The notes under the pieces are model-generated. The model searched no databases, was not told the origin of the DNA, and was given only the letters and a program-made list of their open reading frames with translations. A stretch of DNA of 64,000 bases from Escherichia coli (GTDB lineage Bacteria; Pseudomonadota; Gammaproteobacteria; Enterobacterales; Enterobacteriaceae): the NCBI RefSeq assembly GCF_044324785.1, contig NZ_CP172127.1; one strand, written 5' to 3'. Position 1 is the first letter of the stretch. Each line of letters starts with the position of its first letter. Shown here in pieces: positions 35,888 to 39,310 of the stretch. Position numbers and translations under genes: made by a program.

Positions 35888-36667
35888 TTAGTAGCTGCTG
35901 GCGCTCTTACCGTCGCCGTGACCCAGCGCTTTCAGCAGGCTTGCCAGCAGGCTGGAAGCACCAAAGCGGTAGTGACGCGCATCAGCCCAGTCAGCACCGA
36001 ACAGTTCATCTGCGATGGCGAGATATTTCTGCGCATCTTCCGCAGTACGCACGCCGCCCGCCGGTTTGAAACCAACGGTTTTTTCTACGCCCATATCACG
36101 GATCACTTCCATCATGATGCGCGCGCTTTCCGGCGTCGCGTTCACAGCCACTTTACCGGTAGAGGTTTTGATGAAGTCCGCACCCGCTTTGATGGAGATT
36201 TCAGACGCTTTACGGATCAGCGCTTCGTCTTTCAGTTCGCCGGTTTCGATGATCACTTTCAGCAGTACATTCGCTGCCGCGCAAGCCTCTTTACAGGCTT
36301 TCACAAGGTCAAAACCAACCTGCTCGTTACCCGCCATCAGCGCGCGGTACGGGAACACAACGTCAACTTCATCAGCACCGTAGGCGATTGCCGCACGGGT
36401 TTCTGCCAGCGCGATTTCGATGTCGTCGTTACCGTGTGGGAAGTTGGTTACCGTAGCAATACGGATTTCCGGGGTGCCCTGCTCTTTCAGCGTTTTGCGA
36501 GCAATTGGGATAAAGCGAGGATAGATACAGATAGCGGCGGTATTGCCGACCGGGGTTTTGGCCTGATGACACAGAGCAATTACTTTCTCGTCGGTGTCGT
36601 CGTCATTCAGGGTGGTCAGGTCCATCAATTTCAGTGCACGCAGGCTGCTTGCTTTCAGATCAGTCAT
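35888..36667 (-). CDS. deoC: Deoxyribose-phosphate aldolase
   Basis: ORF track 35888..36691; start set at [54 protein letters not shown] (259 aa). Confidence 0.96.
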
Positions 36668-36711
36668 TTCATTCTCCTGGCTTGTCGCCAATAAAATTCA
36701 CCTTGCGAGTT

Positions 36712-36727
36712 TGTTAGTATTCTAACA
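36712..36727 (-). promoter_or_regulatory. DeoR operator O2 at deo promoter P2 (TGTTAGAATACTAACA on the deoC strand)
   Basis: 16-bp near-palindrome 45 nt upstream of the deoC start; matches the known DeoR operator. Confidence 0.8.
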
Positions 36728-36924
36728 TCTACTCCGCAACACACTTCGATATACATCACAATTAAGGAAATCTACTTACAAGTTTGCATCACTGTAATGC
36801 GATCTGGTTCAAATAATTCACTTTCAAATGAATGCGTCAGTGGTGGCAAACGCATCAGGATCAAAGTGAACATCACGAAACTTCTTACAATGGCGCATCA
36901 CCTTCGGCATAAAAGGAAAAGAAG

Positions 36925-38475
36925 ATGCCCACTTCTCATGAAAATGCACTGCAACAACGTTGCCAGCAAATTGTCACCAGCCCAGTGCTTAGCCCGGAGC
37001 AGAAGCGCCATTTTCTGGCACTGGAAGCAGAAAACAATCTGCCTTACCCACAGCTTCCTGCCGAAGCCCGCCGCGCGCTGGATGAAGGTGTAATCTGCGA
37101 TATGTTTGAAGGTCATGCGCCGTACAAACCGCGCTATGTCTTACCCGATTACGCCCGTTTTCTGGCGAACGGTTCCGAATGGCTGGAGCTGGAAGGCGCG
37201 AAAGATCTTGATGACGCCCTCTCTCTGCTGACCATTCTTTACCACCACGTACCGTCGGTCACATCGATGCCGGTCTACCTGGGGCAACTGGATGCGTTGT
37301 TGCAACCGTATGTTAGAATTCTAACACAAGACGAGATCGATGTTCGAATAAAACGTTTCTGGCGTTACCTCGACAGAACCCTGCCAGACGCCTTTATGCA
37401 CGCCAATATCGGCCCGTCTGATTCGCCCATTACCCGCGCGATCTTACGTGCAGACGCAGAGTTGAAGCAGGTTTCACCGAACCTGACCTTTATCTACGAT
37501 CCTGAAATCACCCCTGATGACCTGCTGCTGGAAGTGGCGAAGAACATCTGTGAATGTAGCAAACCGCACATCGCCAACGGTCCGGTGCATGATAAAATTT
37601 TCACAAAAGGGGGCTACGGGATTGTGAGCTGTTACAACTCACTGCCGCTGGCGGGTGGTGGCAGCACGCTGGTACGCCTTAACCTGAAAGCCATTGCCGA
37701 GCGCAGCGAATCGCTGGATGACTTCTTTACGCGCACTCTACCGCACTACTGCCAGCAGCAGATCGCCATCATCGATGCGCGGTGTGAATTCCTCTATCAA
37801 CAATCACACTTCTTTGAGAATAGCTTCCTGGTGAAAGAAGGGCTGATTAACCCTGAACGTTTTGTGCCAATGTTTGGCATGTATGGGCTGGCGGAAGCGG
37901 TTAACTTGCTGTGTGAGAAAGAAGGGATTGCCGCGCGCTACGGTAAAGAAGCCGCCGCAAATGAAGTGGGTTATCGCATCAGCGCGCAACTGGCGGAGTT
38001 TGTCGCCAATACCCCCGTGAAATATGGCTGGCAAAAACGCGCCATGTTACACGCACAGTCGGGGATCAGTTCCGATATCGGCACCACGCCGGGCGCGCGT
38101 TTGCCGTATGGCGATGAGCCAGATCCGATCACCCATCTGCAAACTGTCGCCCCGCATCATGCTTATTATTATTCCGGCATCAGCGACATTCTGACGCTCG
38201 ACGAAACCATCAAACGTAACCCGCAGGCACTGGTACAGCTTTGCCTCGGTGCCTTTAAAGCCGGAATGCGTGAATTTACCGCCAATGTCAGCGGTAACGA
38301 TCTGGTTCGCGTTACCGGTTATATGGTGCGTTTGTCGGATTTAGAAAAATATCGCGCCGAAGGTTCACGCACCAACACCACCTGGCTGGGCGAAGAAGCC
38401 GCACGCAACACTCGTATTCTGGAACGCCAGCCGCGCGTGATAAGCCATGAACAGCAGATGCGCTTTAGTCAGTAA
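36925..38475 (+). CDS. yjjI: YjjI, DUF3029 glycyl-radical-enzyme-like protein
   Basis: ORF track 516 aa, [55 protein letters not shown]...; followed by its activase yjjW. Confidence 0.88.
37311..37326 (-). promoter_or_regulatory. DeoR operator O1 at deo promoter P1 (perfect palindrome TGTTAGAATTCTAACA)
   Basis: Perfect 16-bp palindrome exactly 599 bp from O2, the documented O1-O2 spacing; lies inside the yjjI reading frame. Confidence 0.8.
37590..37605 (-). promoter_or_regulatory. DeoR distal operator OE candidate (TGTGAAAATTTTATCA on the deoC strand)
   Basis: Imperfect palindrome 279 bp beyond O1, matching the reported ~278 bp O1-OE distance. Confidence 0.55.
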
Positions 38476-39310
38476 GATTATCCCCTTCTCCTGCGTTGAC
38501 GGGCCAGGCAGTCGTCTGGCTCTGTTTTTGCAGGGCTGCAATCTGCGCTGCAAAAACTGTCACAATCCGTGGACGATGGGACGTTGCAATGACTGTGGGG
38601 AGTGCGTGCCACAGTGTCCGCATCAGGCGTTGCAGATTGTTGACGGCAAAGTGGTGTGGAACGCTGTGGTCTGCGAGCAATGTGATACCTGCCTGAAGAG
38701 GTGTCCGCAACATGCCACGCCAATGGCGCAATCCATGAGCGTGGATGAGGTGCTTAGCCATATCCGCAAAGCGGTGCTGTTTATTGAAGGGATAACGGTA
38801 AGCGGCGGCGAAGCCACGACCCAACTGCCGTTTGTAGTGGCGCTGTTTACTGCTATCAAAAACGATCCGCAACTGCGCCACCTCACCTGCCTGGTAGACA
38901 GTAACGGTATGTTGAGCGAAACCGGCTGGGAAAAATTGCTCCCGGTGTGCGACGGCGCAATGCTCGATCTCAAAGCGTGGGGGAGCGAATGTCATCAACA
39001 ACTCACCGGACGCGATAATCAGCAGATTAAGCGCAGCATCTGTTTGCTGGCAGAGCGCGGCAAGCTGGCGGAACTGCGTTTGCTGGTAATCCCTGGCCAG
39101 GTGGATTATTTGCAACACATCGAAGAACTGGCGGTGTTTATCAAGGGACTTGGCGATGTTCCGGTACGCCTGAACGCGTTTCATGCCCACGGCGTGTATG
39201 GCGAGGCGCAAAGCTGGGCGAGCGCCACGCCGGAAGACGTTGAGCCGTTGGCTGATGCGTTAAAGGTGCGCGGGGTGAGCCGCTTAATATTCCCGGCGCT
39301 GTATTTGTGA
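38447..39310 (+). CDS. yjjW: Radical SAM glycyl-radical-enzyme activating protein YjjW
   Basis: ORF track 287 aa; cysteine cluster near the N-terminus (CKNCHNPW) plus ferredoxin-like Cys motifs; overlaps the yjjI end by 29 nt. Confidence 0.9.

Follow-up and report, generated by a model that had tools for sequence, protein, structure and literature searches.

DeoR operators and promoter P1 of the Escherichia coli deo operon, very probably the classical ones, superimposed on the coding sequence of the divergent gene yjjI

Introduction

The closest described system is the classical E. coli deo region (Valentin-Hansen, Dandanell, Hammer and Amouyal, 1982-1989), which has the same operators over the -10 hexamers, the same spacings of 599 and 279 bp, and the same CRP/CytR arrangement at P2 as the locus analysed here, the E. 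coli sequence showing no difference. In that region, 599 bp separate the promoters deoP1 and deoP2, and a single DeoR loop locks them both (PMC3334521). O1 and O2 are single operators located at these tandem promoters, about 600 bp from each other, and OE is found about 300 bp further upstream (PMC8053113). Electron microscopy has visualised DeoR loops, and the predicted extent of looping in vivo is about 72% (PMC8053113). According to the deo literature, DeoR binding is cooperative and the resulting looping represses both P1 and P2, the repressor being released by deoxyribose-5-phosphate. These accounts predate the annotation of yjjI, and the P1-P2 interval was treated in them as regulatory DNA.

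Three other types of system are comparable. In the lac operon, the auxiliary operator O2 is likewise located in an open reading frame, lacZ, and loops to the primary operator; nevertheless, the gene that contains lac O2 is part of the operon under its control, whereas O1, OE and P1 of deo lie in a different and oppositely oriented gene, which results in antisense transcription. Convergent promoters such as pR/pL of phage 186 and PR/PRE of lambda face each other and produce overlapping transcripts, as P1 and the yjjI promoter would do at a distance of about 413 bp if the predicted yjjI start holds. P1 differs from these phage pairs in its established role as a sense promoter of deoCABD, and any interference between deoP1 and yjjI is putative. 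Finally, transcription-factor sites in coding sequence are known to create dual-use codons, in which, as here, the site overrides codon preference and synonymous drift; in comparison with other such codons, the present case is bacterial, involves known operators and a known repressor, and offers a natural control clade without the sites.

Neither the system nor its overlap with yjjI is new: they are on record in the classical deo literature, in genome annotation and in a paper of 2019 (PMC6389913). What is new in this work is the synonymous freezing of yjjI codons, the rare codons involved and the dependence of the sites on deoC adjacency, which together belong to a known kind of phenomenon.

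Results

Layout of the locus

The window, i.e., the whole stretch of 64,000 nucleotides that was analysed, carries deoC at 35888-36667 on the minus strand, as identified by ORF and sequence and as annotated in E. coli genomes. This gene encodes a protein of 259 aa and is the first one of deoCABD; its ATG occupies 36667-36665 on the minus strand and the first intergenic base is 36668. The divergent gene yjjI (36925-38475, plus strand), with 516 codons, encodes a glycyl radical enzyme of the YjjI family and is separated from deoC by 257 bp. The end of yjjI overlaps by 29 nt with yjjW (38447-39310, plus strand), which encodes a radical SAM activase containing the Radical_SAM and Fer4 domains (Pfam). 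A 2.3-kb stretch of this region was matched in 5423 of 5426 complete genomes with 95-99.8% identity and with the annotations yjjW, yjjI and deoC. The orientation of the window is reversed relative to MG1655, and the two sequences differ by 11 substitutions over 1501 positions, none of which affects the operators. In MG1655, O1 corresponds to NC_000913.3 4616664-4616679, where deoC starts at 4617323, and to 4,614,687-4,614,702 in U00096.2 coordinates.

Sequence and spacing of the DeoR operators

Operators were defined by the 16-bp palindrome TGTTAGAA.TTCTAACA. The pattern search returned O1 (37311-37326) as the perfect palindrome TGTTAGAATTCTAACA, with 16 of 16 positions and no mismatch, O2 (36712-36727) as TGTTAGTATTCTAACA, with one mismatch to TGTTAGAATTCTAACA (15/16), and OE (37590-37605) as TGATAAAATTTTCACA, with four mismatches (12/16). 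When up to three mismatches to TGTTAGAATTCTAACA were allowed, only O1 and O2 were found in the 64 kb, with 0.15 matches expected by chance, and two matches were obtained in none of 100 shuffled sequences. OE is one of two sites with four mismatches within the window.

The centre-to-centre distance is 599 bp between O2 and O1 and 279 bp between O1 and OE, and there are 45 nt from the near edge of O2 to the A of the deoC ATG. For the classical region, the exact value of 279 bp for OE and the operator consensus go back to the work of Valentin-Hansen, Dandanell and Hammer in 1986-87. O1 covers yjjI codons 129-134 and encodes (Y)VRILT, using the rare codons AGA and CTA, and OE covers codons 222-227, encodes (H/N)DKIFT and ends 681 nt into the yjjI ORF. 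A -10 hexamer TAGAAT is present inside both O1 and O2 on the deo strand, preceded by TGn and forming an extended -10. The operator positions agree with the first-pass annotation, which had placed O2 45 nt upstream of deoC, a perfect palindrome 599 bp further at 37311-37326, and an OE-like site 279 bp beyond it, with both distal sites inside the 516-codon yjjI that starts 257 bp from deoC on the opposite strand; its coordinates were all within 1 nt of ours, and its estimate that the deo control region extends for about 680 bp into yjjI was accurate, for a frame that is real (see below).

The deo promoters P1 and P2

The extended -10 of P1, TGtTAGAAT, lies within O1, with the hexamer TAGAAT at 37318-37323 on the minus strand, and from its position the P1 start is predicted near 37311. 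The -10 of P2 (TAGAAT, 36719-36724, minus strand) is overlapped by O2 and predicts a start near 36712. This position fits the two conserved CRP sites, placing their centres at the -40.5 and -93.5 of deoP2. CRP site 2 of deoP2 (TGCGATCTGGTTCAAA, 36798-36813) is conserved in the intergenic alignment, and the CytR region lies between CRP sites 1 and 2. CRP site 1 (TTCGATATACATCACA, 36745-36760) is conserved in 60 species, and TTCGATATACATCACA has been named as the CRP motif of the yjjI/deoC ChIP-seq peak (PMC4287617). Upstream of the P1 -10, the block CGA ATA AAA CGT TTC TGG (37345-37362; GAAACGTTTTATTCG on the minus strand, where the element is read), at about -35 to -52, is the likely -35/UP region of P1 and includes the rare codons CGA and ATA. 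A generic promoter scan picked up neither P1 nor P2, owing to their weak -35 hexamers.

Published data are available for P1. One deoCABD promoter was placed "in an upstream gene, yjjI" (PMC6389913, 2019), and the supplement of that paper lists a sigma70 ChIP-seq peak at 4,614,642/4,614,709 (U00096.2), assigned to deoC at a distance of 704 bp; after coordinate mapping, this peak coincides with O1/P1. From the predicted start, the P1 leader would be 644 nt long, and its part at 36925-37311 (minus strand) would be antisense to yjjI codons 1-129, that is, to 387 nt of the 5' end of yjjI; it would also cross the predicted yjjI promoter. The geometry, the sigma70 peak on P1 and the 2019 paper all speak in favour of the earlier claim that P1 transcripts run antisense to the 5' part of yjjI. 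Two minus-strand ORFs in the leader (36898-37116 and 37141-37305) were considered as coding and rejected, since no more than 8-9 of the 63 species have them open, and an Rfam search of 36400-38000 found no RNA family with E up to 1.

yjjI is coding through the operators

yjjI was annotated only after the deo regulatory region had been defined, and its transcription start is listed as unknown (PMC3688515). Both facts would suit a misannotated start or an untranslated 5' third of yjjI, in which case the deo control region would be non-coding and there would be no overlap. Nevertheless, the protein evidence makes this explanation extremely improbable. The Pfam family PF11230 covers aa 22-504 of YjjI with an E value of 2.5e-220, spanning the entire profile (positions 1-485 of 485). 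In relatives of full length, with identities as low as 33% and in some cases lacking a deo neighbour, the alignment begins at residue 1-11, and the conservation of the N-terminal 227 residues equals that of the remainder. Among 63 non-redundant species, mean pairwise identity at codon positions 1, 2 and 3 was 0.86, 0.89 and 0.50 for codons 1-128, and the same pattern of coding periodicity was observed for codons 228-516. The yjjI ATG and a Shine-Dalgarno-like GGA motif also recur across genera.

The structural model points in the same direction. The AlphaFold2 (AF2) model of YjjI has a mean pLDDT of 91.5 and a pTM of 0.91, with the N-terminal half at 85-98 and forming part of the barrel, and its best structural matches are NrdD/class III ribonucleotide reductases, PFL-class and other glycyl radical enzymes (TM 0.70-0.76); a sequence search for a solved structure of YjjI found none. 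YjjI also has the features sought for a glycyl radical enzyme: the motif RVxG[FWY] is found close to the C terminus, a Cys loop is conserved, and the gene next to yjjI encodes a radical SAM activase. R462, G465 and C236 do not vary among 28 sequences, and Y466 is nearly invariant. As to the possibility, raised in the first-pass annotation, of a yjjI start downstream of 37605, the Pfam domain, the homologues, the periodicity and the AF2 model agree that the start is not there. On this sequence and model evidence, we regard the annotated yjjI start as correct and O1 and OE as located inside genuine coding sequence.

Synonymous constraint at O1 and OE

Synonymous-codon identity, normalised by amino acid, was scanned along the 516 codons in 63 non-redundant Enterobacterales with 2000 permutations. 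The first-ranked block was codons 129-134, corresponding to O1, whose residual of 0.428 exceeds the maximum of the 2000 permutations (0.356), followed by codons 222-227, corresponding to OE, whose residual of 0.346 exceeds the 99.9% permutation quantile, these levels not being strict probabilities and the species scanned being related. The third block (codons 508-513, residual 0.291, above the 95% level of 0.267) is the overlap with the yjjW start, and the fourth (codons 295-300, residual 0.276, marginally over the same level) is an unexplained feature, which was rejected as a fourth operator with a match of 8/16. Codons 141-146, which directly precede the -10 of P1 on the deo strand, ranked fifth with a residual of 0.250, under the 95% permutation level. 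Identity at codon position 3 reached 0.98 in O1 and 0.95 in OE, versus about 0.5 elsewhere. The rare codons AGA and CTA in O1 and CGA and ATA upstream of P1, all within codons 131-142, represent four of the eight in the whole gene.

This clustering of rare codons, together with the location of both O1 and OE at helix ends, could suggest that the codons are conserved for the needs of the YjjI protein or mRNA, as a motif or a rare-codon pause, the likeness to DeoR operators being incidental. The behaviour of the protein at these sites, however, argues strongly against it. In the AF2 model, the O1 and OE segments correspond to a helix end plus a loop, and in the wider YjjI family both sites lie in hypervariable, indel-prone segments, between LLxPYV and TxxEL for the former and between HIAN and YGIVSC for the latter. 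Residue 131 is not fixed and tracks the operator variant, being Gly/GGA in Hafnia, Edwardsiella and L083 (a homologue described below), Arg/AGA with the perfect palindrome, and Lys/AAA or Ile/ATA in others. Since the protein segments are hypervariable and residue 131 follows the operator variant, the constraint acts on the DNA and not on the protein. Moreover, where deoC is not adjacent, the codons are free to vary and the operator is absent (see below), and DeoR looping between these same sites has been reported (PMC8053113). An origin of the conservation in YjjI itself is therefore very improbable, and O1 and OE are DNA elements that overlie a real gene.

The sites follow deoC adjacency

In a scan with one genome per species, 80 yjjI loci were obtained, in 74 of which yjjI has deoC as its divergent neighbour. 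The two genes are 215-272 bp apart, or 457-473 bp in Hafnia and Edwardsiella. O1 was found at yjjI nt +386 in all 74 deoC-adjacent loci, perfect in 52 and with one or two mismatches in the others, and OE, at +665, was identical to that of E. coli in 62 of the 74. An O2-like site with up to four mismatches was present at the matching place in 72 of these loci, in 14 variants. The spacing between O1 and O2 varies from 567 to 626 bp among species, and that between O1 and OE is constant at 279 bp, indels between them being absent from all aligned coding sequences.

Loci that lack an adjacent deoC serve as a natural control. In the four Proteus loci, deoC is absent within 4 kb and the operator is absent as well; the Proteus codons that match O1 read GTG GGT GAG CTC ACC or similar, with synonymous variation among species. 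Three more distant homologues show the same dependence: L083, which is 66% identical, carries all three sites in matching places, and the sites are absent both in L084 (68% identical), located beside deoB-deoD without deoC, and in L085 (57% identical), without a deo neighbour. The pairing of yjjI with deoC and the operator positions are thus retained down to 66% protein identity. The sites are kept wherever yjjI and deoC are divergent neighbours; they are absent otherwise, as in Proteus, L084 and L085.

The yjjI promoter

A yjjI promoter is predicted at 36851-36891 on the plus strand, composed of an FNR-like site CGCATCAGGATCAA (36851-36864) and a -10 TACAAT (36886-36891) that sits 21 nt downstream of it. 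In the yjjI-proximal part of the intergenic alignment, conservation is confined to GGATCAAA (36859-36866) and TACAnT (36886-36891). The right half of CGCATCAGGATCAA, GGATCAAA, is perfect and conserved, and the left half is poor and unconserved. When the full FNR consensus was searched with up to two mismatches, the only candidate was TCGATATACATCAC, which overlaps CRP site 1; the conserved half-site at 36859-36866 was preferred. A class II FNR promoter would have TTGAT-N4-ATCAA centred near -41.5, upstream of the -10 hexamer; the conserved blocks would be compatible with such a promoter and a predicted start near 36898, although the left half-site is poor and CGCATCAGGATCAA as a whole falls below the two-mismatch search. 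An FNR ChIP peak was reported at 4,615,181 (U00096.2), with yjjI in the category 'directly activated' (PMC3688515), and this peak maps to about position 36832 of the window. If yjjI starts near 36898, P1 and the yjjI promoter would face each other about 413 bp apart, with O1 about 413 nt and OE about 692 nt downstream of the start.

Discussion

The analysis of this locus indicates that O1, O2 and OE are, very probably, the classical DeoR operators of deoCABD, and that O1, P1 and OE are superimposed on a genuine yjjI gene. O2 lies over the -10 of P2 and O1 over the extended -10 of P1, with OE 279 bp beyond O1, and according to the literature the cooperative binding of DeoR loops the DNA and represses both deo promoters. 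On the protein side, O1, P1 and OE occupy two structurally permissive, hypervariable segments of YjjI, where selection on the DNA sites has very probably frozen yjjI codons, including rare ones, and even set amino acids, as in the change of Gly131 to Arg or Lys.

The same arrangement may have consequences for yjjI. Judging from the geometry, P1 transcripts would be antisense to the yjjI promoter and to the first 387 nt of the gene, the predicted yjjI promoter would lie within the O1-O2 loop, and RNA polymerase transcribing yjjI would have to cross DeoR-bound O1 and OE; yjjI transcription may in return disturb P1 and DeoR. An antisense P1, a promoter in the loop and a DeoR-bound path make it plausible that the expression of deo and that of yjjI interfere with each other to some extent. 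Any such interference is not absolute, since yjjI has been described as inducible anaerobically and FNR-activated (PMC3688515), and the deo arrangement therefore does not silence it.

A different possibility is that the main function of O1 and OE is the control of yjjI-yjjW, through a DeoR roadblock, the loop or a dedicated antisense P1, and that deo repression is secondary. The predicted location of the yjjI promoter inside the O1-O2 loop, with both distal operators downstream of it, and the preservation of the yjjI-deoC pairing and of the operator positions to 66% protein identity are compatible with this idea, and the NrdD-like fold of YjjI hints at nucleotide or sugar-phosphate chemistry. 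On the other hand, classical genetics has established that O1 and OE enhance the repression of the deo promoters (PMC8053113; PMC3334521), a promoter of deoCABD itself occupies the position of O1 (PMC6389913), and no link to DeoR was found in the 29 papers that mention yjjI. We therefore consider it improbable that yjjI is the main target, and retain the repression of deoCABD as the primary role of the sites.

A secondary influence on yjjI is another matter. Our literature search returned no study in which yjjI had been measured in a deoR mutant. We rate the chance that DeoR or P1 measurably affects yjjI as somewhat below even, and consider a physiologically meaningful effect unlikely. It is with the same caution that we put forward the tentative idea that deoP1 and DeoR at O1/OE could be a real input to yjjI-yjjW, acting by convergent transcription under induced conditions and by roadblock or loop enclosure under repressed ones. 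If this were true, an orphan NrdD-like glycyl radical enzyme would be coupled to the availability of deoxyribonucleosides, and the lasting pairing of yjjI with deoC would reflect a functional link, for example an action of YjjI on pentose or deoxypentose phosphate, and not mere regulatory entanglement.

The deo region is a textbook example of long-range repression by DNA looping, and the present work adds no new system to it. What the comparison among species adds is that 12 codons in the gene of an unrelated enzyme have been kept frozen by a promoter and two operators throughout the history of the Enterobacteriaceae and beyond, and the embedded deo elements probably lock deoC and yjjI together on the chromosome. 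The deo/yjjI pair illustrates how a gene can harbour the regulatory DNA of its neighbour, which forces rare codons and amino-acid changes on it. Synonymous recoding could separate the YjjI protein from the deo elements, which would provide a simple handle on this orphan glycyl radical enzyme.

Discussion

An intragenic CRP ChIP-seq peak has been reported within yjjI in ETEC H10407 at position 5129400 (about 37471 in the window), and the site assigned to it by MEME is CGTACCGTCGGTCACA, at 37250-37265 (PMC4287617; region about 37250-37470). Synonymous conservation is absent from this site. The companion intergenic peak of the same study (PMC4287617) is displaced by about 175 bp from CRP-1, a CRP site of deoP2 (36745-36760), in the same direction as the intragenic peak. 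Therefore, the true source of the intragenic signal could be near the DeoR operator O1 (37311-37326) and its promoter P1; O1 itself differs from TGTGA-N6-TCACA at two positions. Alternatively, the signal could come from cross-linking via the DeoR loop. The second CRP site of deoP2 (36798-36813) is centred at 36805.5, that is -92.5 from the predicted yjjI start (~36898) and -93.5 from deoP2. If this predicted start is right, the site is almost equidistant from both divergent starts, and therefore CRP or CytR might act on yjjI as well (region 36798-36898).

Two other regulatory-like matches within yjjI do not exceed chance expectation. A sequence resembling a promoter, TCGCCA-16-TAAAAT preceded by TG (37571-37598, plus strand), reads in the same direction as yjjI and overlaps the operator OE; one such match was found against 1.3 expected from shuffles. 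Within the part of the P1 leader that is antisense to yjjI codons 9-13 there is a weak terminator-like hairpin with a 5-bp stem, GCAAC-GTT-GTTGC followed by AGTGCATTTT (36951-36963, minus strand); two such hairpins were found against 1.4 expected.

The third peak of synonymous constraint in yjjI (codons 508-513) is explained by the overlap with yjjW, the radical SAM activase gene, which starts 29 nt ahead of the yjjI stop (38447-38475), an arrangement consistent with translational coupling. The fourth-ranked block, CAC TTC TTT GAG AAT AGC TTC (codons 295-301; 37807-37827), is marginal, with a residual of 0.276 against 0.267 at the 95% permutation level. As a DeoR operator it was rejected, matching at only 8 of 16 positions. 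The FFxxSFLV motif of this region is kept at the protein level, Proteus included.

Regarding genomic context, a metagenome-assembled Enterobacteriaceae genome (locus L084, 1-4428) carries a yjjI of 68% identity divergent from deoB-deoD, without deoC or deoA between them and with no DeoR operators within or near yjjI. Among 5426 places matching the yjjI-deoC stretch in the E. coli genome collection, three are on plasmid-labelled records.

The best matches to the predicted structure of YjjI (36925-38475) are NrdD proteins, the class III anaerobic ribonucleotide reductases (TM 0.70-0.76, 13-16% identity), with PFL-type enzymes ranking behind. Since this NrdD-like orphan enzyme adjoins a deoxyribose catabolic operon, there is a hint, as speculation only, that YjjI may perform chemistry on a pentose or deoxypentose.
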